Shown: positions 13,695 to 23,601 of the stretch, piece by piece
How the letters are laid out: each line of letters begins with the position of its first letter
Position numbering within the stretch: position 1 is the first letter of the stretch
Assembly: GCA_021791545.1 (NCBI GenBank)
Contig: JAJYWL010000016.1
Location: 219,704 to 283,703 of the forward strand
Direction: 5' to 3'
Length of the DNA: 64,000 bases
DNA from: a bacterium
GTDB lineage: Bacteria > Patescibacteriota > Microgenomatia > Levybacterales > UBA12049
The notes under the pieces: generated by a model
What the model saw: only the letters and a program-made list of their open reading frames with translations
What the model was told of the DNA's origin: nothing
Database searches by the model: none
Translations under genes and position numbers: made by a program

Positions 13695-14498
13695 ATGGAT
13701 CCAAGACCACCATCAGAGCCAGGACAAAGTCCAACGGAGGGGCAAGGCGGAGTACCGCCAGTAGAACAACCAACATCAGAAACCGTAGGAACATTTAAAC
13801 CGGGATTAGTTGAGAGACTAGACTCTGCAAGGAATCAATTAGGTGCGTTAGAGCAAGAGGCTGAACGAAGCATGCAGGAGTTAACGCATGGTCTTCGTAG
13901 TGTTGCTAAGAAGGCAGTTAGCGAATTGCCTGTTACAGCTATCACTATAGCAAGAGAACCTGAAAAGATGCGGGTAGAGGAGGTAAGCGATAAGCCTTCC
14001 GTGATAAGACAAGATCGGGAAGAAGTTCGTGATGGTGTTTTTGTATCAGGTGATGGAAAAAGTGTAAAATTACATGTAAAAAATACAGGCACATTTTATC
14101 AGCCAATTGACGAAACTGATACAAAAAGTGTTGAATTTCTTACTAGTTATTATGGTAAAGACATGGCGAGCATACGTAGACGCTATATGGAGCTTCATGT
14201 TCCAGATGATCCCGAATTAATAGTTTCAATAGATTCTTTATGGAACCCTAACAGTTTTATTATTCGTAGGGGTACATCAAAAGATGAAGACGATCAAATA
14301 AAAGTAGGTAGGCGTAATGATGGTAGGGTGGGTGTAGAGGTTGGTTTGTTTGCCTCCGATATTGGTGATCCATTTGATATAGTAAGAAGAACTTTGGATT
14401 TTACTAAATCCGCAACCCTGAAACCCGTGGAAAATCAAGCGCAAACTCCACCACCTACGCCACCGGCTCAACCAGCAGAAGGTATGCCGCAGAGTTAA
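13695..14498 (+). CDS. hypothetical protein, Pro/Glu-rich termini, GC-rich codon usage
   Basis: 267-aa ORF. Composition is clearly GC-richer than its surroundings. No recognisable domain. Confidence 0.5.
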   Translation: MDPRPPSEPGQSPTEGQGGVPPVEQPTSETVGTFKPGLVERLDSARNQLGALEQEAERSMQELTHGLRSVAKKAVSELPVTAITIAREPEKMRVEEVSDKPSVIRQDREEVRDGVFVSGDGKSVKLHVKNTGTFYQPIDETDTKSVEFLTSYYGKDMASIRRRYMELHVPDDPELIVSIDSLWNPNSFIIRRGTSKDEDDQIKVGRRNDGRVGVEVGLFASDIGDPFDIVRRTLDFTKSATLKPVENQAQTPPPTPPAQPAEGMPQS

Positions 14499-14652: not shown

Positions 14653-15567
14653 ATGGATCCGACTAAAGAACATTCTCTGCCTCCTAATCCCATTGAGCAA
14701 AAAGTTAAGGATGCGTTTGCAGATTATCCAAGTACTACACAAAGAGGAATTACTTCGGTATTAGAAATGCAACGAAAGGCGTGGCAAAGACTAAGAAGTA
14801 ATCCAGGAGACATGATAACAGGAGTAGTAGTTTCGGAGGGACTTGCTTATCAAACTTCAATTACCAGTGTAGAGATTCCTAAGCGGGAACTCTCTCCCGA
14901 AGAAAAGCTAGCTTATACAAAGTTTCAAGAATTAATCGAACCTTATAAACGTACTAAAGTTTATGGGTTTCCTTCGGGTGATGAACCAAATACACGTTTT
15001 TATCTATCGCTAAAAGATGGCTTGCAGTCAGTTGGATTAATGACTGATTTAACCACAAAGCTTTTGGATTTACATAAACAAGGAAAGCTACCTTTCTTTA
15101 TGTATAAATTTGATAGCACCGACGAAGAAGGAACAATTAGATTTGATCCTCAATATAGAGATAAGGGAGCTTCGCCAATATTATATGTTCCAAATGCAGA
15201 TGTTGAAATTACGAATCAGATATTAGAAGAATTATCAAATCAATATCCCGAAGCATTTTTGCCGCAAGATGCACCTTTTAAATATCCTTCCCACGGGCAA
15301 ATAAATGAAGGTTGGCACATTTCAATGGAGGCTTCTGATTTAAGTGAACAATTTAAAACGCCCGAACAAGGAATGAGGAAAGCTTCTAGTGATTTTCTTA
15401 TGTCTCTTGGTCTTACAAAAGAGTGGATTCCTGTACAATCTTTAGATGCTATGAATCTCAGAAAATCTTGGGAAAAATCAGTACTTAAAGTTCATAGGCA
15501 ACCTCAAACGCCCTGGATCACATTAAACAGTGGATTAATCCCACCAATCTTGACAAACTCTAGTTAA
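14653..15567 (+). CDS. hypothetical protein (304 aa), GC-rich
   Basis: Long ORF starting ATGGATCC like its neighbour. No recognisable domain. Confidence 0.5.
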   Translation: MDPTKEHSLPPNPIEQKVKDAFADYPSTTQRGITSVLEMQRKAWQRLRSNPGDMITGVVVSEGLAYQTSITSVEIPKRELSPEEKLAYTKFQELIEPYKRTKVYGFPSGDEPNTRFYLSLKDGLQSVGLMTDLTTKLLDLHKQGKLPFFMYKFDSTDEEGTIRFDPQYRDKGASPILYVPNADVEITNQILEELSNQYPEAFLPQDAPFKYPSHGQINEGWHISMEASDLSEQFKTPEQGMRKASSDFLMSLGLTKEWIPVQSLDAMNLRKSWEKSVLKVHRQPQTPWITLNSGLIPPILTNSS

Positions 15568-16091: not shown

Positions 16092-16478
16092 ATGGACAAA
16101 AGAATCGGAACAGTCTGCTTTATAATTCAGGATAATAATATACTTCTTGCTTTAATTGAGTACGGACCAAACGACAGAAAATGGAATGGAATTGGAGGAC
16201 ATGTTGATTCTAATGAATCCCCTGAAGATGCAGTAGTTAGGGAGTTTTCAGAAGAAACATATATTAAAGTTAATAAAAATGATCTTATTAAGGTATTGGA
16301 AATAAATAGCGATATTAAATTATTGGTATATAAGACAAATCATTGGCAGGGAGAAATAAAAGCAAAAGAAATATCGCTTAAAGAATTTAGGTGGTTTGAT
16401 AAAGACGAAATACCTTTCGATCAAATGTATCCCGACAATAAGGAGTGGTTACCAAAGCTATTTGTAAATGAACCTTAA
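16092..16478 (+). CDS. NUDIX hydrolase
   Basis: Nudix box GGHVDSNESPEDAVVREFSEETYI. TATAAT lies 6 nt upstream of the ATG. Confidence 0.8.
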   Translation: MDKRIGTVCFIIQDNNILLALIEYGPNDRKWNGIGGHVDSNESPEDAVVREFSEETYIKVNKNDLIKVLEINSDIKLLVYKTNHWQGEIKAKEISLKEFRWFDKDEIPFDQMYPDNKEWLPKLFVNEP

Positions 16479-17511
16479 TGATTTTAAATCATATTTAGAA
16501 GAACAAACTAGGAAGGATTTATTTTCTGGGTCCGTTTTAATTACAAAAGACGATAATACGTTTCTTGAATACGCATCCGGTTTTGCTAATAAAGAAAAGC
16601 AAATTAAAAATAATATAAACACAAAGTTTAATTTAGGTTCTATGAATAAAATGTTCACTGGGGTTGCTATTGTCCAACTAGCACAAGACGGAAAATTATC
16701 TTTTCAAGATATAGTCGGAAAGTTTATTCCCAATTACCCTAATAAAGAGGTTTTAGAAAAAGTTACGATCCATCAATTACTGACACATACTTCGGGGTTG
16801 GGACATTACCTAAATGAAAAGTATATGGAAAAAAGAACCCAACTTAAAACAATAGATGATTTTATTGCTCTTTTTGCTGAAGAACCTCTTTTGTTTGAAC
16901 CCGGAACAAAATGCATTTACAGCGCAAACGGATACACCTTACTTGGAAAAATAATTGAAGTTATTTCTGAAATCAGCTATTACGATTATGTTAAACAAAA
17001 TATTTTTCTTAAAGCGAATATGTTAAATACTGATTCCTACGAAATTGACTCCAATAACATACCTGAAGATATTGCAATCGGATATACACGAAGAATTGAT
17101 ATCCAGGGTAATATGAATGAAGAAGGGGAACGCAAGGATAATCTTTGGATTAACCTTATCAAAGGAGATTCCGGAGGTGGTGGTTATTCTACTTGTCCAG
17201 ATTTACTTAATTTTTCAAACACTTTGTTAAATAATAAATTATTAAATCCGGAAATGACTAAAATAGTTTTAACCCCATATGTAAACGAAGGCACTAAAAA
17301 CGGTCAGACTAAAAATGAAGGTTATGGATTCCAGGTTTGGGATATTAATGGCATTAAAAGAATCGGTCATCCGGGAAGATTTGCCGGAGTTAATACCCGT
17401 TTTGATGTGTATCCTGATTTAGGGATAACAGTTGTAGTTTTGGCAAATTATGATCCACCAGCTGCGTTTGATATTGCAGAGAACGCTACAAAACTAATTA
17501 CAACCAGTTAA
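16468..17511 (+). CDS. serine hydrolase, beta-lactamase/PBP-like family
   Basis: SMNK (SxxK) active-site motif, plus YSANG and HPG elements. Length 347 aa. Confidence 0.7.
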   Translation: MNLNDFKSYLEEQTRKDLFSGSVLITKDDNTFLEYASGFANKEKQIKNNINTKFNLGSMNKMFTGVAIVQLAQDGKLSFQDIVGKFIPNYPNKEVLEKVTIHQLLTHTSGLGHYLNEKYMEKRTQLKTIDDFIALFAEEPLLFEPGTKCIYSANGYTLLGKIIEVISEISYYDYVKQNIFLKANMLNTDSYEIDSNNIPEDIAIGYTRRIDIQGNMNEEGERKDNLWINLIKGDSGGGGYSTCPDLLNFSNTLLNNKLLNPEMTKIVLTPYVNEGTKNGQTKNEGYGFQVWDINGIKRIGHPGRFAGVNTRFDVYPDLGITVVVLANYDPPAAFDIAENATKLITTS

Positions 17512-17570
17512 TTTTCTATAATATTTTATCTCCTAATGTTTACTCTCTAACAGATGCATCTAAAAATACA

Positions 17571-18032
17571 TTATTTTGTTAACTCTATTGGGGGTCTTTG
17601 GGGAATTTCCTCATTTGTATTTGGTATTTCAAAAATCACATACAACCCGCTACCAGTCATTTGAGTAGGAATATGTATTGGTATATATTTTTCTTTAGTA
17701 AAATTTTCTCCAAATTTTTTCTTTACTTCTTCGTGTACGCTTGCACCCATTACGCTGCCAACGGATATTGTGCCTTTTGGAATCAGCTGATCCACGCTAT
17801 GAATATTTAATTCTTTCATTTTAGGATAAATTTCCTGAATTTGTTCAAAACACAAAAGGATTATGTTTAAAATTTCATAGCCAGCTCTAATATAGTCATC
17901 TTCCGTTGGTTTTTCTTCCGTTCCCTCGATGCTAAAGTCTTGAATCTTTTTTAATGCGGGTAACGAGCTGATATTCGTATTCGAAAAGTTAAACCCTTGA
18001 GGAAAATAATTTTTAATATAATATTCCGCCAT
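17571..18032 (-). CDS. hypothetical protein
   Basis: ORF only; start at internal ATG (MAEYYIKNYF). Confidence 0.35.
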   Translation of the reverse strand: MAEYYIKNYFPQGFNFSNTNISSLPALKKIQDFSIEGTEEKPTEDDYIRAGYEILNIILLCFEQIQEIYPKMKELNIHSVDQLIPKGTISVGSVMGASVHEEVKKKFGENFTKEKYIPIHIPTQMTGSGLYVIFEIPNTNEEIPQRPPIELTK

Positions 18033-18106
18033 AATTAATACACTATTACAATTTCTAAGAAATAGCAATGTCCGAATAGGATTTAAGCATAGTTCTAACT
18101 AATTAG

Positions 18107-18160
18107 AATACGTCAGCTGCCTTTGACATTGCAGTAAAAGTATTTAGCTTTCTTTTCTAA
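18107..18160 (+). pseudogene. 3' remnant of a second beta-lactamase-family gene (encodes ..SAAFDIAVKVF..)
   Basis: 19/22 nt identity to 17463-17484 (the 3' end of the intact gene), in the same frame and encoding AAFDIA. Confidence 0.4.
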
Positions 18161-18187
18161 TAATAATTTAAATAAAATTTTTATGTT

Positions 18188-19579
18188 CTAATATTCAATC
18201 GCCTTGGGAAACTGTCTTATTTGGGGTGTTGGTTGAACAAAGGTACTTCTATAATTTCTGTAATCAAGAGTTGCCAGTTCTGTTGCTCTTTTTCTTCTTA
18301 TATTGGTTTCGCCGTTCTCACCTACCATTCCCGGAAATAGTGCTTTAAAATATCTGTCGGGGAATAATGGATCTTGTGAAACTGCTGTATCCAACTTTCT
18401 TGCAATATCTGGCGGGACTGCGACAGATAGACGAACCTGCACCCCTCCACGAGTATCATAAGGCGTTTCTGTATACATGTAATAATCGTAGGATGACCAG
18501 TCTTTTTCTCCATGTTTTCCTTGAAAAGTTTTCGCTTCCTCTCCGCTTCCCGTATAACTAGTTGCCTGAAAATTACTCGCAACCCACATTTGCCTATTTA
18601 CATGGTCATATGGAGACCAAACATTATGGTTGGGAGAACTATAATCATAATCAAATTGATATCTGGGTAAAAATTTTTGTAATGCCCGATAGTCCGCTTC
18701 ATTACCGACAATATTGCTTCCCATAGAAAAACCTTGTCCTGGATATTGACCTAACCCATTGGTCTTATCTACAGGATATAGAAAGCCCCAAAGCTGACCA
18801 AAACCATTATCATGAGTTGCCTTAGCAAGCTCATTAGCTATTTGTTCCTGTTGTTCTTCGGCAGATTTTGTTTCTGAAGTTCTTGAGCTTACATTTGCAT
18901 CAGACTGTTGCTCTGTTGATCGTGGCACTTCATTCTCTTCACGTATTAGTCTATCTTCTAAATTTCTAGCTGCCGCAATACGGAATTTTAATTCAGCCGC
19001 GTCACCAGGTGACAATTCATCATTATCTAATATTCCATGCCATTCATAAATTAATCCTTGTAAAATATCAGTTGCTTCCGAAGCTTGCATTTTTTTTGCT
19101 TCTGGAAGAAAATCTTCCATCTCAGTACTGAGAATGTCTCCGCCTGAAGCAATTAGCTCCTGAGTTTTTTCATCCATTAAATCAATTGCTTTCATACCAG
19201 CTATCATATCTGCTACTTCAATTTCCTTTTCAGTTAATTGAGCTTGTTTAATCGCATGCATATGTTCAGGACTATTTCTATACCCAGGATTATTTCTTGT
19301 ATTTTTTAATAAACTGGCATTTTGTTTTTTAAGAGTATCCTCAAGACGCAAGGTAACATTAGTCAAAGAGCCTGGTATTGGAGTTGTTTCTGAAGAATCG
19401 CCACCTTCAGCAAGTCTTTTAATAACATCGTCGGGATTTGCTCCTTGGTTAACTTCATTACCAATACTTTCCCCCGTTGCCTTAGCAGTTGCATCTACTC
19501 TTGGAACTTCAGGTCGAATATTCGGCTTTGTAGTTTCTTGTCTGACAATAGGTTGTTCTGGTGTTGGTAAATCAGGCAT
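18188..19579 (-). CDS. hypothetical protein, 463 aa, Pro/Glu-rich N-terminus, Tyr/Trp/Asp-rich C-terminal domain
   Basis: Long ORF translationally coupled to the upstream small ORF (8-nt overlap). Confidence 0.55.
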   Translation of the reverse strand: MPDLPTPEQPIVRQETTKPNIRPEVPRVDATAKATGESIGNEVNQGANPDDVIKRLAEGGDSSETTPIPGSLTNVTLRLEDTLKKQNASLLKNTRNNPGYRNSPEHMHAIKQAQLTEKEIEVADMIAGMKAIDLMDEKTQELIASGGDILSTEMEDFLPEAKKMQASEATDILQGLIYEWHGILDNDELSPGDAAELKFRIAAARNLEDRLIREENEVPRSTEQQSDANVSSRTSETKSAEEQQEQIANELAKATHDNGFGQLWGFLYPVDKTNGLGQYPGQGFSMGSNIVGNEADYRALQKFLPRYQFDYDYSSPNHNVWSPYDHVNRQMWVASNFQATSYTGSGEEAKTFQGKHGEKDWSSYDYYMYTETPYDTRGGVQVRLSVAVPPDIARKLDTAVSQDPLFPDRYFKALFPGMVGENGETNIRRKRATELATLDYRNYRSTFVQPTPQIRQFPKAIEY

Positions 19580-19922
19580 TTTTATCCTCCTTTTGCAGGC
19601 TTTGTTTTAAAAGCTTTTCTGCTTCGTCAAATTTTCCCGATTTTATCATCATTTCTGCATGTTTGGCAACCAATTTATCTACTTCTGATTCGTGTTCTGA
19701 TAATAAGGGAAGTATGGCTTGAGAAAGTTCTGTAAAATGGTCATCTAAAGTTGGAGCAATTTCGTATATTTGTTCTAATGTTAACGGTGGATGAAGTTTC
19801 TCCAATAGCAATTTTGCAATTTGTTGTGCCCGGTCTAAATCCATTTGCCCGTTTTGTAATTTCTGGGCAATAATTTCCAGAATATCCTTTTCCAGTTGTT
19901 TTCTTTTTTCTTCAGCATCCAT
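19572..19922 (-). CDS. small acidic all-helical protein (116 aa)
   Basis: ORF lying 2 nt after the kinase-like gene and overlapping the next start. Confidence 0.45.
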   Translation of the reverse strand: MDAEEKRKQLEKDILEIIAQKLQNGQMDLDRAQQIAKLLLEKLHPPLTLEQIYEIAPTLDDHFTELSQAILPLLSEHESEVDKLVAKHAEMMIKSGKFDEAEKLLKQSLQKEDKNA

Positions 19923-19924
19923 AA

Positions 19925-20440
19925 TTATTGTATATTTTTCTTTATTTCATTAATACATTCTTCTAAGGCGTCCTCTTCAGTATTTAGAAAAATTGCATTT
20001 TCTATTGGATTATTAATTACTTTATTTAGTAGACTTTCAATTACATTTCTGTCCATTGGTGGTCTAATACCATTTGTCTGGTCAGATCTTTCTTTATCAC
20101 GCTTGATTAATGTTTCAATTGAACAATCAAGCTGATAAACAAAATATTTAATATTTCTTTTCTTAGCAATTTCAATTGCATTATTTGCATACTCAGATTT
20201 TTTAAATATTCCTTCGTAAACAACTGTATAACCTCTGTCCAACAGGTTTTCTAAAACTGCATAACATGTTTTAAAAACCTCATCTAAAGCCCTATCGTCG
20301 CTTGGGTTATCGAAAAACTCTTTTAAGTTATCTGTTTTAAACCAAACAACTTTGTTGTCAAAATCCCTTAATTGTTTTGCAATGGTTGTTTTGCCACTTG
20401 CAGGAGCACCCCGTAAGACTATTAAAGTTTGCATCATCAA
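19925..20440 (-). CDS. P-loop kinase-like ATPase (AAA_33/zeta-toxin-like fold)
   Basis: Walker A GAPASGKTT at the N-terminus; 171 aa. Confidence 0.6.
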   Translation of the reverse strand: MMMQTLIVLRGAPASGKTTIAKQLRDFDNKVVWFKTDNLKEFFDNPSDDRALDEVFKTCYAVLENLLDRGYTVVYEGIFKKSEYANNAIEIAKKRNIKYFVYQLDCSIETLIKRDKERSDQTNGIRPPMDRNVIESLLNKVINNPIENAIFLNTEEDALEECINEIKKNIQ

Positions 20441-20503: not shown

Positions 20504-21403
20504 TTATTCTTCCTTAATTATTTTCCAAACCTTTTCTCCTCCTAAGATTGTATCTGTCATAATCTTTTGATATGTAGTTAATAAAAAGGTAATTTTTGGT
20601 TCTTCATAGCTATACATAAGTTCGTCATTTATAAATTTTATGTAAAAGTTCATAATATGAAAATTAGGAAAGATAAGTATTATTTTAGGAAACTCTCCAT
20701 GCATGTTTTCGTAAAGAGCTAATTCGTTCTTTTCTTCTTTAAGTCTTATGTATTGTTTAATCCTATGTTTAATTGCATATTTTGGCATTTTTGGATCAAA
20801 GACTTCAATCATAAAACAATTATCTTCTATGGTTTCATTCCCTTTATATTTAAATTTTTCTACATATAGATCCGGGATAAACTGCTTAATGTTATTAAAT
20901 TCTTCAGTTGAACTTACTTGATTTAATTTCTCAATCCAGTTTTCAGTTTTACTAGAAATTTCATATTCAATCTCCGATTCTTTTTTACCTTTATTTTTAA
21001 GGTATTCAAAGATTTTAAATTGGGTATAAATCTCAGAGATTAGGATGCAGTGATTTATAAAAGTTTTAGAAGCATTTTTATCTTCATAGAACTTTTTAAG
21101 ATGTTTAATTTCAACTTCCCCTTCATTATTAGAGAATGATTGATAATTATATCTTGCCCAGATAATACCGTTGTTATTTAAGTAATATATTGCAGGTTTA
21201 GTATTTTCTAATAGCTTATGCGAATATATTCTTCCTAAATATTCTTTAGTAACTAAATCCTTAAGCCATACATTAATTCTTTTAGCATCTTTATGTCTTA
21301 ACAGCCTTTGTATTTGATGTCTATTAACAAATCTTAATTTAATTATTATTTCAAGTATTTCTTTTTGTTTATTTGTTATTTCAGGAAGTATTTTGTAGTT
21401 CAT
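20504..21403 (-). CDS. replication-relaxation (Replic_Relax) family protein
   Basis: N-terminal wHTH pattern ITNKQKEILEIIIKLRFVNRHQIQRLL; about 300 aa; very AT-rich. Confidence 0.55.
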   Translation of the reverse strand: MNYKILPEITNKQKEILEIIIKLRFVNRHQIQRLLRHKDAKRINVWLKDLVTKEYLGRIYSHKLLENTKPAIYYLNNNGIIWARYNYQSFSNNEGEVEIKHLKKFYEDKNASKTFINHCILISEIYTQFKIFEYLKNKGKKESEIEYEISSKTENWIEKLNQVSSTEEFNNIKQFIPDLYVEKFKYKGNETIEDNCFMIEVFDPKMPKYAIKHRIKQYIRLKEEKNELALYENMHGEFPKIILIFPNFHIMNFYIKFINDELMYSYEEPKITFLLTTYQKIMTDTILGGEKVWKIIKEE

Positions 21404-21693: not shown

Positions 21694-22017
21694 ATGCAAG
21701 CCTTAGAATTACCAATAACTCAAACTACGCACTACGAAGACAATATTTCTACTAATGAATTTACTTCTCAAGCCCTGACCACAAACCCCTTCAATGTACT
21801 AGATAATTCTTTCAATCGAATTTTTAACCAAAACTTTGAGGAAAAGATAGTTCTTCAAATGAGAAAAATGCTAGGAGAAAAAGCAAATACGCTTACTGAT
21901 GAGAAAGTCGAATGCTTGGCAACAGAATTTCAATTTCTTATTAATACCTGGCTTGATGAATATGAAAGAGATGTTTTTGGGGGAATGACTTTAAAAGAGG
22001 TTTTAAACGAAAAATAA
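21694..22017 (+). CDS. small hypothetical protein co-transcribed with the serine recombinase
   Basis: ORF ends 2 nt before the recombinase ATG; start at the first ATG after the promoter. Confidence 0.4.
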   Translation: MQALELPITQTTHYEDNISTNEFTSQALTTNPFNVLDNSFNRIFNQNFEEKIVLQMRKMLGEKANTLTDEKVECLATEFQFLINTWLDEYERDVFGGMTLKEVLNEK

Positions 22018-22019
22018 AC

Positions 22020-23549
22020 ATGAGAAATATTATTAATAATGATACAAAACGGGCAATTATCTATATTCGTGTTTCAACTGATGAACAGGTTGATAATTTC
22101 TCCTTGGAAACCCAACAAAAAATATGCATTCAGGAGGCAGAAAGACGTGGGATGGAGATTGTCAAAACTTTTAGAGAAGAAGGGAAATCTGCAAAGACAA
22201 TAATGGGAAGACCGGTTTTGATGGAACTTTTGGAGTTTTGTCGAAAAAATAAAAGAAATATTGATGCCGTAATTGTTTATAGATTAGATAGGGTTTCTCG
22301 TCAATTGCAAGATTATTTAGCTATTCGAAAAAGACTTGCAGAATATCAAATTACAATTATTTCCGCATCTGAACCCACCGGCAATAGTCCTACCGAAAGA
22401 TTTATTGAATCAATGCTTGCAAGTTTTGCTCAAATGGACAACGATGTTAGAGGCGAAAGAGCCAAGAATGGCTTAAAAGCAAGATTTTTAGCAGGACTTT
22501 CAAGCGGCACTCTTCCTCTTGGTTATATATACGAAAACGGATATGCGGTAAAAGATCCAAACACTTGGGATAAAATAAAAAACGCTTGGGAGCTTATGGC
22601 AACCGGCACAAAAACTCTTCAGGAAATGGCTACGCTTATGAATGAATGGGGTTTAAGACAAAGATATAATATTGGCGAACAAATTATTCGGGCGCAAGCT
22701 TTAAGCCGGATGTTTAGGAATAAATACTACATTGGTATTTTAGTTTCAAGTAAATATCCCGAACAGGTTCGCGCACAACATTTACCGATGATTTCCGAAG
22801 CCATTTTTTATAGAGTCCAGGCAGCAATTGACGGAAGAAGTAATATTGTTAAAACACAAGTTTCTAGGAGAAATAAAGATAATAAAGAGTTTCCTTTAAG
22901 AAGAATTTTAGTTTGTGATCATTGTGGAAATCCTGTAACAGGAGGATGGAGTAAGGGTAAACTTACTAGATACGCATATTATCGTTGCCAAAAAGGTTGT
23001 CGTGTTCCTTCTATTTCTGCAGATAAAGTACACGAGGCAACGACTCATTTTCTATCAGGTATAACACCAACAAAAGAAGGATTAGATGCTTTCATTGCGC
23101 TTTTAAGAAGAACATATTACGAGCGAGTCACACAATTACAAAAAAGAAGAGATGAAGCAGATAACGAACTGAAAAAATTATATGAACTTCGCCAGTCTTT
23201 AATTCAGAAAAATTTAGATGGTATTTATTCCGATGAAATATTCAAAGAACAGAACAAGCTTATTGAAGAGCAAATTGCAAATGTCCAAATTACTAAAGAT
23301 GATGCATTACTTGCAAAATACAATCTTGAGGCAATTATTAAATTTATGAAAGAAAAATTTTCAAATTTAGGAAAAACTTATCAGATGTCAAACTTAAGTC
23401 AACTCCGAGTGCTCTTGTGTTCAATTTTCCCCGCTGGTATGCGTTGGAGCTATCCGGGCTACTACAACACCGAAATTAGCCCGATATATCAATCTATTCG
23501 TATGTTTGATTGTAATCAGATCTCCTCTTGTCGGGGTGCCGAGAATTGA
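22020..23549 (+). CDS. large serine recombinase (integrase)
   Basis: N-terminus AIIYIRVSTDEQ resolvase catalytic motif, a recombinase domain, and a zinc ribbon CDHC..C..C; 509 aa. Confidence 0.85.
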   Translation: MRNIINNDTKRAIIYIRVSTDEQVDNFSLETQQKICIQEAERRGMEIVKTFREEGKSAKTIMGRPVLMELLEFCRKNKRNIDAVIVYRLDRVSRQLQDYLAIRKRLAEYQITIISASEPTGNSPTERFIESMLASFAQMDNDVRGERAKNGLKARFLAGLSSGTLPLGYIYENGYAVKDPNTWDKIKNAWELMATGTKTLQEMATLMNEWGLRQRYNIGEQIIRAQALSRMFRNKYYIGILVSSKYPEQVRAQHLPMISEAIFYRVQAAIDGRSNIVKTQVSRRNKDNKEFPLRRILVCDHCGNPVTGGWSKGKLTRYAYYRCQKGCRVPSISADKVHEATTHFLSGITPTKEGLDAFIALLRRTYYERVTQLQKRRDEADNELKKLYELRQSLIQKNLDGIYSDEIFKEQNKLIEEQIANVQITKDDALLAKYNLEAIIKFMKEKFSNLGKTYQMSNLSQLRVLLCSIFPAGMRWSYPGYYNTEISPIYQSIRMFDCNQISSCRGAEN

Positions 23550-23601
23550 ACTCGGCCCACACGCACCCCATGCGCGCATTCTACCGATAAACTACACCCC
23601 G
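23531..23601 (-). tRNA. tRNA-Pro (anticodon GGG)
   Basis: Manual cloverleaf: 7-bp acceptor CGGGGTG/CACCCCG, anticodon stem CGCGC/GCGTG, loop AUGGGGU, T-arm CCGAG-UUCAAUU-CUCGG. No encoded CCA. Confidence 0.75.

Follow-up and report, generated by a model that had tools for sequence, protein, structure and literature searches.

A conserved small-protein gene and a leader-bearing partner gene of exchangeable body form a recurrent pair in Microgenomates-type bacteria

The minus strand of the window analysed here (a stretch of 64,000 nucleotides from a Levybacterales bacterium) carries two overlapping genes, encoding a small and a large protein, which constitute a widespread and previously undescribed pair in Microgenomates-type ultra-small bacteria. 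The pair recurs in at least 28 loci with a conserved leader on the large protein and exchangeable bodies behind it, and the logic of an effector with a small partner, which the first-pass annotation had assigned to the locus, fits these two genes. A full-text search of the literature found no description of the pair, of the leader or of the C-terminal domain of the large protein (Y). We read the two genes as an adaptor plus a leader-tagged, exchangeable cargo, i.e. as a recurrent two-gene module of the Microgenomates group, and regard the chances for and against this reading as evenly balanced. It is built on what was observed: the order and coupling of the genes, a small protein that is conserved, a leader shared among the large proteins and correlated with the small gene, the replacement of cassettes, and the diversity of the bodies.

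The small-protein gene (19572–19922, minus strand; 116 aa, ATG at 19922) is preceded by a P-loop kinase gene (19925–20440, minus strand; 171 aa, TTG start) and followed by the large-protein gene (18188–19579, minus strand; 463 aa, ATG at 19579). The kinase stop codon ends at 19925, leaving a 2-nt gap to the small-gene ATG, and the stop codon of the small gene ends at 19572, giving an overlap of 8 nt with the large gene; the tight coupling claimed previously is exact to the nucleotide. Direct reading of the sequence places a Shine–Dalgarno sequence of the large gene, AAGGAGG (19586–19592, minus strand), 6 nt ahead of its ATG, within the 3′ end of the small gene. No terminator-like sites that would break up the trio were found on the minus strand, and the three genes probably share a transcript. 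The same three-gene arrangement is present in contigs of three other samples. Since homologues of every one of them occur elsewhere, all three open reading frames (ORFs) are regarded as genuine genes.

The trio lies downstream of a Replic_Relax gene (20504–21403, minus strand; Pfam PF13814, E = 4.9e-9), which belongs to the backbone of a mobile element and is located 63 nt upstream of the kinase on the same strand, as the first-pass annotation had placed it. Relatives of this gene at 32% identity flank small–large pairs in loci L044 and L061. Further upstream, a gene for a large serine recombinase (22020–23549, plus strand; Resolvase, 1.8e-32, with Recombinase and Zn_ribbon_recom domains) overlaps by the last 20 nt of its ORF a tRNA-Pro(GGG) gene (23530–23601, minus strand) identified by ARAGORN. 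A three-domain recombinase beside a tRNA gene agrees with a large-serine-recombinase integrative element, and the proposed mobile-element setting is supported. The tRNA-Pro(GGG) gene is likely the integration site. In a search for the ends of the element, no second copy of the 3′ part of the tRNA gene with up to 3 mismatches and no meaningful exact repeat with a length of at least 11 nt that might represent att sites were found.

Genomes were scanned with stringent peptide patterns, and the scan is thus no census. In 22 of 22 Microgenomates-type loci (L012–L033), and in 6 other contigs as well, the small gene was found directly ahead of a gene for a soluble large protein. The Microgenomates assignment is based on named homologues from Daviesbacteria, Levybacteria, Curtissbacteria and Roizmanbacteria. 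In one of the 22 loci the two genes are 116 nt apart, and in the other 21 the distance lies between −14 and +7 nt. The same adjacency is seen in L006, L008, L044, L059 and L061. Most pairs of partner proteins resemble one another over the first 55–70 residues alone, and about 16 unrelated bodies were counted from the BLAST table among 24 partners, including bodies with a Zeta_toxin domain (L008), a HopA1-family domain (L010/L021; E = 1.2e-9), a NUDIX domain, and PP2C plus FHA domains, as well as others without assignment.

The leader of the large protein in the window (19379–19579, minus strand; residues 1–67) is rich in Pro and Glu and ends in the motif NPDDVIKRL. The disordered, Pro-rich N-terminus described earlier is confirmed by 10 Pro within residues 1–75 and can now be recognized as this leader. 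A hidden Markov model (HMM) of the leader from 23 other loci aligns residues 5–67 in register (p = 1.6e-6), and the large protein is its sole match among the 268 ORFs of the window, with a score of just 14.8 bits; the other Pro-rich proteins of the window (13695–14498 and 14653–15567) are not matched. Among 1371 ORFs, the HMM matches solely genes placed after the small gene. In a held-out test, all four partners encoded behind a small gene, including the one in the window, were matched N-terminally and in register (p between 4e-9 and 1e-5), and a relative of the large protein in L043 that has no small gene was not matched. The leader is of low complexity and weakly conserved. Host interaction is poorly understood in CPR/Patescibacteria at large and hardly at all in Microgenomates, a group of which, to our knowledge, there is no cultured representative; the leader and the small gene together provide a sequence handle with which candidate proteins for host interaction or regulation could be listed in hundreds of genomes.

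The small protein has 154 homologues, of which the best 120 are 56–93% identical to it, and the motif KLHPPLTLEQIY.IAPTLDDHF.EL varies little or not at all among them. In a syntenic pair of loci (L006/L010), the small proteins share 81% identity, as compared with 80% for AdoHcyase and 72% for PfkB. The protein is acidic (pI 4.98), and AlphaFold2 predicts an all-helical structure of five helices with low confidence (pLDDT 58.9), which is expected of the lone protein if folding takes place on a partner; the model is too uncertain at this value to serve as a query in structure searches. A Pfam scan of 34 family members yielded scattered and inconsistent matches to helical repeats and no consistent family, and a profile search of the PDB returned designed TPR proteins alone (E = 0.025). 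The small protein is the conserved partner and is proposed to be a leader-specific adaptor.

Behind the leader, the large protein contains an acidic middle region (18869–19354, minus strand; residues ~76–237), which is common to the relatives in L043, L061 and L044, and a C-terminal alpha/beta domain, Y (18191–18868, minus strand; residues 238–463), which belongs to an unannotated family. According to BLASTP, a 471-aa protein in L043 is 40.6% identical over residues 58–463, whereas the alignments to the L061 and L044 proteins begin at residue 160. The large protein has no Cys and no hydrophobic segment, and its last 226 residues contain 33 Trp, Tyr and Phe in total; with no Pfam or NCBIfam match, the earlier description of an aromatic-rich C-terminus lacking a known motif is accurate. 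An exhaustive HMMER search for the Y domain yielded 58 cluster representatives, 13 of them at E ≤ 1e-30, in which Y occurs as a standalone protein of ~237–290 aa, as a C-terminal domain or as an internal part of giant proteins. The AlphaFold2 model of Y is confident (pLDDT 91.4, pTM 0.90), and Foldseek found nothing significant for it in the PDB (best E = 0.025, TM ≤ 0.29) and only noise when PDB and BFVD were searched (E ≥ 0.016; weak PAS-, GAF- and IclR-like matches); a profile search of PDB sequences also returned nothing. Y is a new domain family, its model being without a PDB neighbour, and one that is repeatedly fused to PP2C phosphatase domains (three architectures). Standalone Y proteins reside in ordinary chromosomal or housekeeping neighbourhoods with no conserved neighbour, so that Y need not be an effector, and this occurrence argues against Y being a toxin. 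A defence or phage origin of the small and large proteins was also considered and rejected: PADLOC and PHROGs gave no meaningful match to either protein, and neither the small protein nor Y was found in IMG/VR contigs.

Comparison with the sister strain (L059) revealed that the body of the large protein has been exchanged as a cassette. The window and L059 align by blastn with 95.5% identity over 21700–19551 and with 95.8% identity over 17486–13600, and no alignment was obtained for 19550–17487. The replaced cassette (17487–19550, minus strand) comprises the large gene from approximately codon 10 onwards, a 119-nt spacer and an ORF of 165 aa (17571–18068, minus strand; 153 aa in some assemblies). 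Upstream of it, the small protein, the kinase and Replic_Relax are 93, 93.5 and 99.7% identical, respectively. Replacement was also seen in a second, independent syntenic pair, L006/L010, where the leaders alone match among the partners, at 55% identity.

These replacements bear on the possibility that the locus is a toxin–antitoxin or polymorphic toxin–immunity module, with the large protein as toxin and either the small protein as a general, epsilon-like antitoxin or the 165-aa ORF as immunity gene. Such a module, which we consider highly improbable, would be in keeping with the location on a mobile element, with the swapping of the 165-aa ORF along with the body, and with a small protein that is acidic, helical, of about epsilon size and encoded upstream of the Zeta_toxin-domain protein in L008. 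However, the small protein remains 56–93% identical beside unrelated bodies and therefore cannot recognize a toxic domain. Moreover, the toxin–immunity interpretation of the first-pass annotation does not suit a small protein as conserved as AdoHcyase next to a body that is replaced, because immunity proteins behave in just the opposite manner. The 165-aa ORF matches nothing in any library and was rejected as a conserved immunity gene, since no homologue of it was found at other Y-domain-bearing loci; no ORF intervenes between the large gene and a β-lactamase gene in L059, and the gene downstream of the pair in L044 and L061 is a convergent Replic_Relax gene. The lack of a conserved neighbour of standalone Y proteins and the absence of meaningful PADLOC matches also speak against a toxin–antitoxin module.

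The kinase is treated here as an accessory gene of the mobile element and not as a core part of the adaptor–cargo pair. It shows the hallmarks of P-loop kinases, i.e. a Walker A motif (G11-APASGKT18), the catalytic Asp after strand 2 (Asp37) and an RxxxR lid (R114-x3-R118, reading R114-DKE-R118). It matches the Pfam families Zeta_toxin (E = 1.9e-9; 37.7 bits, with a cut-off of 22.3), AAA_33 (7e-9; 36.6 bits), KTI12 (1.7e-8; 34.7 bits) and CPT (8.7e-8; 32.6 bits). Among solved structures, it is closest to the kinase domain of L-seryl-tRNA(Sec) kinase (PSTK; E = 2e-6), to whose RRNIER the lid aligns. Remote homology searches, proposed earlier for all three proteins, placed the kinase among P-loop families, whereas Foldseek for the Y domain and profiles for the small protein gave no assignment. 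The kinase has 72 homologues of ~170 aa in Levybacteria, Roizmanbacteria and relatives, and on the adaptor–cargo reading is an independently mobile member of the PSTK/KTI12–AAA_33–CPT–Zeta assemblage that travels with the Replic_Relax backbone. It was also compared with the fused Zeta domain of L008 as a possible split version of the latter; Walker A alone matches, and this candidate was rejected.

The first-pass annotation had treated the three genes as one unit. That they make up a system, with the large protein acted on, activated or neutralised by the kinase and with the small protein as chaperone or immunity protein, strikes us as improbable. Retention of the trio in L059, on the same element backbone, as well as the 2-nt gap with no intervening terminator would agree with such a system; L059 has, however, kept its kinase although the Y domain was swapped out, and the trio recurs nowhere else among the small-gene loci examined, the kinase being missing from 38 scanned small-gene loci and from L044 and L061, whose large proteins belong to the same body family. 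What stands of the expected co-occurrence is the joint recurrence of the small and large genes. In L043, a kinase homologue (40% identity) is encoded 5 nt upstream of the full-length relative of the 463-aa protein, the two having diverged alike (40 and 40.6%), and in L001 the P0002 gene is bordered by two further P-loop kinases; a functional link between kinase and body is therefore conceivable. The closest kinases (64–71% identity), on the other hand, lie beside a GNAT acetyltransferase gene or a BrnT/BrnA pair, in neighbourhoods that lack both the small and the large gene. A phosphorylation theme is suggested by the link between Y and PP2C, but we know of no protein substrates for this kinase clade. 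The GC content of the kinase gene (0.30) groups with that of Replic_Relax (0.251) and not with that of the small and large genes (0.35–0.39; window, 0.355).

The kinase and its neighbour also invite comparison with epsilon/zeta (PezA/PezT) systems, in which a kinase above the Pfam Zeta_toxin threshold is likewise adjacent to a small acidic helical protein. The kinase here, of only 171 aa, nevertheless scores alike on AAA_33, KTI12 and CPT and is nearest to PSTK, the kinase gene precedes the small gene, in reverse of the epsilon/zeta order, and the small protein is not consistently accompanied by the kinase, L059 being the only case beyond the window's strain. For annotation, this means that a Zeta_toxin match beside a small acidic protein need not indicate a toxin–antitoxin system.

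For the pair itself, the small protein would be a leader-specific adaptor or chaperone that captures the leader of the protein made right after it and links this cargo to a conserved machine of the cell, by which it would be exported or localized. The bodies would be lineage-specific effector enzymes or binding modules, the present one consisting of the acidic middle region and the new domain Y. What we infer beyond the sequence observations is that the two proteins bind physically, that the cargo is handed over and exported, and that it may act on a host. An envelope link is hinted at by synteny with yidC in other CPR lineages: yidC is located just downstream of the small-protein homologue in seven of seven Dojkabacteria-type loci and divergently adjacent to it in one Saccharibacteria contig, and it also occurs ~840 nt past the large gene in L018. 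Tentatively, and with considerable doubt about the whole, these elements can be joined into an undescribed Microgenomates targeting or export route, in which an adaptor of ~115 aa reads a leader of ~60 residues for delivery to the envelope or host, possibly through a YidC-linked machine, and in which the adaptor gene might also provide the homology arm on the upstream side when cassettes are exchanged.

No Sec, Tat or lipoprotein signal, for which a search had been proposed, was found in the partners, hydrophobic segments are absent from 22 of 24, and no secretion-system genes were seen beside any pair locus. Because no secretion signal or apparatus was found, the action on the host cell that had been suggested for the module stays speculation. 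The same features would suit an arrangement in which nothing is exported and the small protein is a conserved housekeeping factor on a core machine such as YidC or the ribosome, to which the leader, as a docking peptide, recruits lineage-specific regulatory enzymes, Y-domain proteins among them. This alternative, which we judge unlikely, draws further on the AdoHcyase-like conservation of the small protein, on the solubility of the partners, on signalling-type payloads and the fusions of Y with PP2C, and on the small-protein homologue of Dojkabacteria, which sits in a yidC–jag cluster without a leader-bearing partner. It accounts less well for the body swap between strains that are ~95% identical in the flanks and for its counterpart at the second locus, a pattern of conflict or host interaction, or for the HopA1-like payload, the HopA1 family being known as a secreted effector of plant pathogens. 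The PP2C–FHA, NUDIX and kinase payloads suit intracellular signalling equally well.

Viewed as adaptor and cargo, the pair resembles several known systems in part. LXG toxins of the type VII secretion system (T7SSb) of Firmicutes are likewise encoded directly downstream of one or more small helical proteins, and share with the large protein a conserved N-terminal region, a polymorphic C-terminal part and exchange from strain to strain. The LXG domain is, however, a helical domain of ~200 aa, whereas the leader is a disordered, Pro-rich peptide of ~60 aa; no LXG domain was detected in the large protein, which has no Pfam match at all, and direct reading shows that the small protein contains no Trp and hence no WXG motif of the WXG100 type. 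There is also no consistent downstream immunity gene, and no EssC-type apparatus was seen near the pair loci. Mycobacterial PE/PPE pairs, which are substrates of ESX-5, similarly combine a small (~100 aa), conserved helical protein encoded just upstream with a partner whose N-terminus is rich in Pro and Glu and whose C-terminal part varies greatly and can carry enzymes. They come from another phylum. Neither protein here has a PE or PPE match in Pfam, the YxxxD/E motif is missing from the conserved block of the small protein, which reads Y-E-I-A-P, and we know of no ESX system in CPR.

Class I chaperone–effector pairs of type III secretion (T3SS), such as ShcA–HopA1, also consist of a small acidic protein adjoining an effector, here of 116 aa and with overlapping genes; one partner (L010/L021) carries a HopA1-family domain, and the chaperone-binding region of T3SS effectors comprises their first ~50–100 residues. 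T3SS chaperones are, however, effector-specific alpha/beta dimers of poorly conserved sequence, whereas the small protein is predicted, with low confidence, to be all-helical and is far more conserved than its cargo; it has no Pfam chaperone match, and no T3SS is known to us in CPR. Polymorphic toxins in general (CDI, Rhs, MAFB), reportedly treated by Zhang, Aravind and colleagues in 2012, differ in that not just a C-terminal tip but almost the whole protein is replaced here, and in that the pair has no cognate downstream immunity gene and no known trafficking domain, its bodies being putative effectors. They nevertheless share with the pair a conserved N-terminal module, cassette-like replaceable parts at syntenic loci, and sharp recombination breakpoints between near-identical backbones.

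In the window, three minus-strand genes encode a kinase of 171 aa (19925–20440), a small protein of 116 aa (19572–19922) and a large protein of 463 aa (18188–19579), and the ORF listing returned exactly the positions given in the first-pass annotation. The kinase and small genes are separated by 2 nt, whereas the small and large genes overlap by 8 nt (ATGCCTGA), with a Shine-Dalgarno sequence (AAGGAGG, minus strand, 19586–19592) lying within the end of the small gene, 6 nt ahead of the ATG of the large gene. No terminator-like sites were found on the minus strand within the trio, and promoter-like matches occurred no more often than in shuffled sequence. The same arrangement is present in contigs from three other samples, and because homologues of the kinase, small and large genes occur elsewhere, all three are real genes. 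Homologues with assigned names, from Daviesbacteria, Levybacteria, Curtissbacteria and Roizmanbacteria, suggest that the source of the window belongs to the Microgenomates.

The small and large genes form a recurrent pair, the second member of which is highly variable. In four loci containing distant homologues of the small protein, a large gene follows within 2–5 nt and is different each time, encoding proteins of 1019 aa (L005) and 432 aa (L006) with no Pfam match, 547 aa with a Zeta_toxin domain (L008) and 420 aa with a HopA1 domain (L010). Further payload domains include NUDIX (L020) and PP2C plus FHA (L022). A genome scan using one genome per species and strict peptide patterns returned 31 loci, a sample rather than a census. 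The small gene is followed by a gene for a protein of 218–1630 aa in all 22 Microgenomates-type loci; in 21 loci the distance is −14 to +7 nt, and in the remaining one it is 116 nt. Many of the contigs concerned (L014–L019, L024, L027–L029 and L031–L033) are titled ‘uncultured Gammaproteobacteria bacterium’, and L016 is titled ‘Rikenellaceae’; the ORFs of L016 agree in both length and leader sequence with those of L017, a Daviesbacteria contig, and these titles therefore look wrong.

In an all-against-all BLAST comparison, most pairs of these partner proteins were alike only in their first 55–70 residues, and approximately 16 unrelated bodies were counted from the BLAST table among 24 partners. 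The shared leader is of low complexity and consists of a Pro-rich stretch followed by K-P-(L/I/V)-G and then, after a short amphipathic segment, by [N/D/S]PD..[A/V][L/I]..[I/L]. A leader HMM built without the window aligned in register to residues 5–67 of the 463-aa protein (p = 1.6e-6), which was its sole match among the 268 ORFs of the window. Among 1371 ORFs (38 loci plus the window), the HMM matched no gene other than that following the small gene, although this holds by construction for the training loci. In a held-out test, it matched all four partners of small genes (L061, L059, the window and L044; p = 4e-9 to 1e-5) but not the relative in L043, which has no small gene.

Comparison with the sister lineage (L059) revealed that the body is exchanged as a cassette. 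L059 has the same backbone as the window (recombinase, 99-aa gene, Replic_Relax, kinase and small protein), with amino acid identities of 99.7% for Replic_Relax, 93.5% for the kinase and 93% for the small protein, whereas its large protein (485 aa) shares only residues 1–60 with that of the window (33% identity) and is unrelated in the C-terminal part. At the DNA level, the identity is 95.5% at 21700–19551 and 95.8% at 17486–13600, with no detectable identity at 19550–17487; thus, a 2.06-kb cassette in the window replaces a 1.48-kb one. The window cassette comprises the large gene from approximately codon 10 onwards and a 165-aa ORF (17571–18068; 153 aa in some assemblies), which has no library match and no homologue in any fetched locus or beside other Y-domain genes. 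A second, independent syntenic pair, L006 and L010, shows the same pattern: AdoHcyase, PfkB and the small protein are 80, 72 and 81% identical, respectively, whereas the large proteins match in the leader only (55%).

The C-terminal part of the 463-aa protein (residues 238–463) is a new, mobile domain, here called the Y domain. The protein has no match in Pfam, NCBIfam or PADLOC, as the first-pass annotation had anticipated for this domain, and its PHROG match (E = 0.094) is meaningless. A word-indexed search yielded one relative, matching residues 241–463, and an exhaustive HMMER search with a two-sequence profile identified 58 cluster representatives, including 13 at E ≤ 1e-30. Many of these are standalone proteins of approximately 237–290 aa (one named from Curtissbacteria); in others, 346–683 aa long, the domain forms the C-terminus, and in a few it is internal to a giant protein. 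The domain is joined to a PP2C phosphatase in three different architectures (P0160, P0168 and P0177), and fusion proteins of giant size (1462 and 2659 aa) are among them; P0175 (3188 aa) also bears a Y domain. An AlphaFold2 model from a 32-sequence alignment is of the alpha/beta type (pLDDT 91.4, pTM 0.90), and Foldseek detected no significant neighbour of it in PDB (best E = 0.025, TM ≤ 0.29) or BFVD. The conserved positions are mainly Gly, Pro and aromatic residues; the almost invariant polar positions, R140, D171, R192 and D202 (alignment numbering), do not form an obvious catalytic set. Standalone Y genes reside in ordinary chromosomal settings (after rmuC, after metG, and near AdoHcyase and PfkB genes), and those examined have neither a conserved neighbour nor a kinase nearby. 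These contexts argue against the toxin proposed in the first-pass annotation, and we regard a toxin–antitoxin or toxin–immunity module as very unlikely.

The kinase carries a Walker A motif, Asp37 and an R114-x3-R118 lid. Its Pfam scores are nearly equal for Zeta_toxin, AAA_33, KTI12 and CPT (E = 1.9e-9 to 8.7e-8), all NCBIfam matches are far below their cut-offs, and among solved structures L-seryl-tRNA(Sec) kinase is the closest, through its kinase domain (E = 2e-6). Neither gene order nor co-occurrence fits membership of the epsilon/zeta systems. The family consists of approximately 170-aa proteins of Levybacteria, Roizmanbacteria and their relatives. The first-pass annotation treated the trio as one functional unit, but the kinase is separable from the small and large genes: jackhmmer found no match to it across 38 small-gene loci, no kinase gene is present in L044 and L061, which contain the small gene, the body family of the window and, in convergent orientation, a Replic_Relax gene, and kinase homologues of 71 and 64% identity have no small or large gene nearby. 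At a GC content of 0.30, the kinase gene groups with Replic_Relax (0.25) rather than with the small gene (0.35) or the large gene (0.39). On the other hand, L043 encodes P0124, which is related over its full length to the 463-aa protein (40.6% identity), and a kinase homologue (40% identity) precedes the P0124 gene by 5 nt, without an intervening small gene; moreover, the P0002 gene (L001) is flanked by two other P-loop kinases. These arrangements argue against complete independence of the kinase and, together with the PP2C fusions, raise a possible phosphorylation theme; a three-gene system nevertheless appears improbable. Close kinase homologues (64–71% identity; L062–L064 and L065–L067) sit in variable islands, where one, with DUF3800 and an MmeI-type restriction-modification system next to it, precedes a GNAT acetyltransferase gene by 8 nt and another is found near a BrnT/BrnA toxin–antitoxin pair.

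The small protein is acidic (pI 4.98) and predicted to be all-helical, although AlphaFold2 gives only a low-confidence model of the isolated protein (pLDDT 58.9), and no relative was consistently identified in Pfam or PDB. The best 120 of its 154 homologues are 56–93% identical, and the block KLHPPLTLEQIY.IAPTLDDHF.EL is invariant or almost so. Because this conservation cannot stem from contact with variable bodies, the contacts of the protein are most likely with the leader and with a conserved machine of some kind. Its homologue in the Dojkabacteria-type loci (L034–L040; 35–42% identity) lies just upstream of yidC-jag in 7/7 cases, sometimes with a tandem paralogue between, and lacks a leader-bearing partner in all seven; in a Saccharibacteria contig (L042), it is divergently adjacent to yidC, and in the Microgenomates-type locus L018, yidC is located approximately 840 nt past the large gene. 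These observations are of synteny only, but they point towards the envelope and the membrane-insertion machinery. The best-supported reading, which we consider about evenly balanced, is that the small protein would serve as an adaptor or chaperone specific to the leader of an exchangeable cargo protein, which it would bind and hand over for export. A hydrophobic segment is absent from 22 of the 24 partners, and an intracellular docking hub is an alternative that we consider rather unlikely.

A leader-specific adaptor would follow a logic similar to that of several known systems. However, the LXG and WXG signatures of T7SS LXG/Lap pairs and the PE and PPE signatures of PE/PPE pairs were not found here, T3SS chaperones are alpha/beta proteins whereas the small protein is predicted to be all-helical, and no immunity gene co-varies with the large gene as in polymorphic toxin systems. 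Literature searches turned up no account of the pair, its leader or the Y domain. The pair may represent an adaptor and a polymorphic protein tagged by a leader, with parts that have not been described before, and we know of no such system in this phylum.

The trio lies directly downstream of a Replic_Relax gene (20504–21403, minus strand), as initially annotated, with a spacing of 63 nt. The last 20 nt of a large serine recombinase ORF (22020–23549) overlap a tRNA-Pro(GGG) gene (23530–23601) on the opposite strand, which suggests that the element is integrated at this tRNA gene; no att direct repeat was found for it. The recombinase region shares only 72.9% identity with the sister lineage, compared with approximately 95.5% for the neighbouring DNA. 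The GC content of the Replic_Relax gene (0.251) is strikingly low relative to that of the window (0.355) and, with the similarly low value for the kinase gene, suggests that these backbone genes were acquired recently. In two other lineages, represented by L044 (5393–7276) and L061 (8895–10791), the pair is followed by the convergent Replic_Relax gene and an IS1-like transposase gene. The two Replic_Relax proteins are 81% identical to each other and 32% identical to that of the window; this subfamily of the pair has thus moved together with Replic_Relax more than once. Two adjacent plus-strand genes (13695–14498 and 14653–15567) encode proteins of 267 and 304 aa with Pro-rich N-termini, which have no match in Pfam, NCBIfam or the leader HMM, and the similarity to the sister lineage stops just left of them, at approximately 13600. 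A NUDIX hydrolase gene and a beta-lactamase-fold (PF00144) gene, overlapping by 11 nt (16092–17511), are kept beside the cassette in both lineages.
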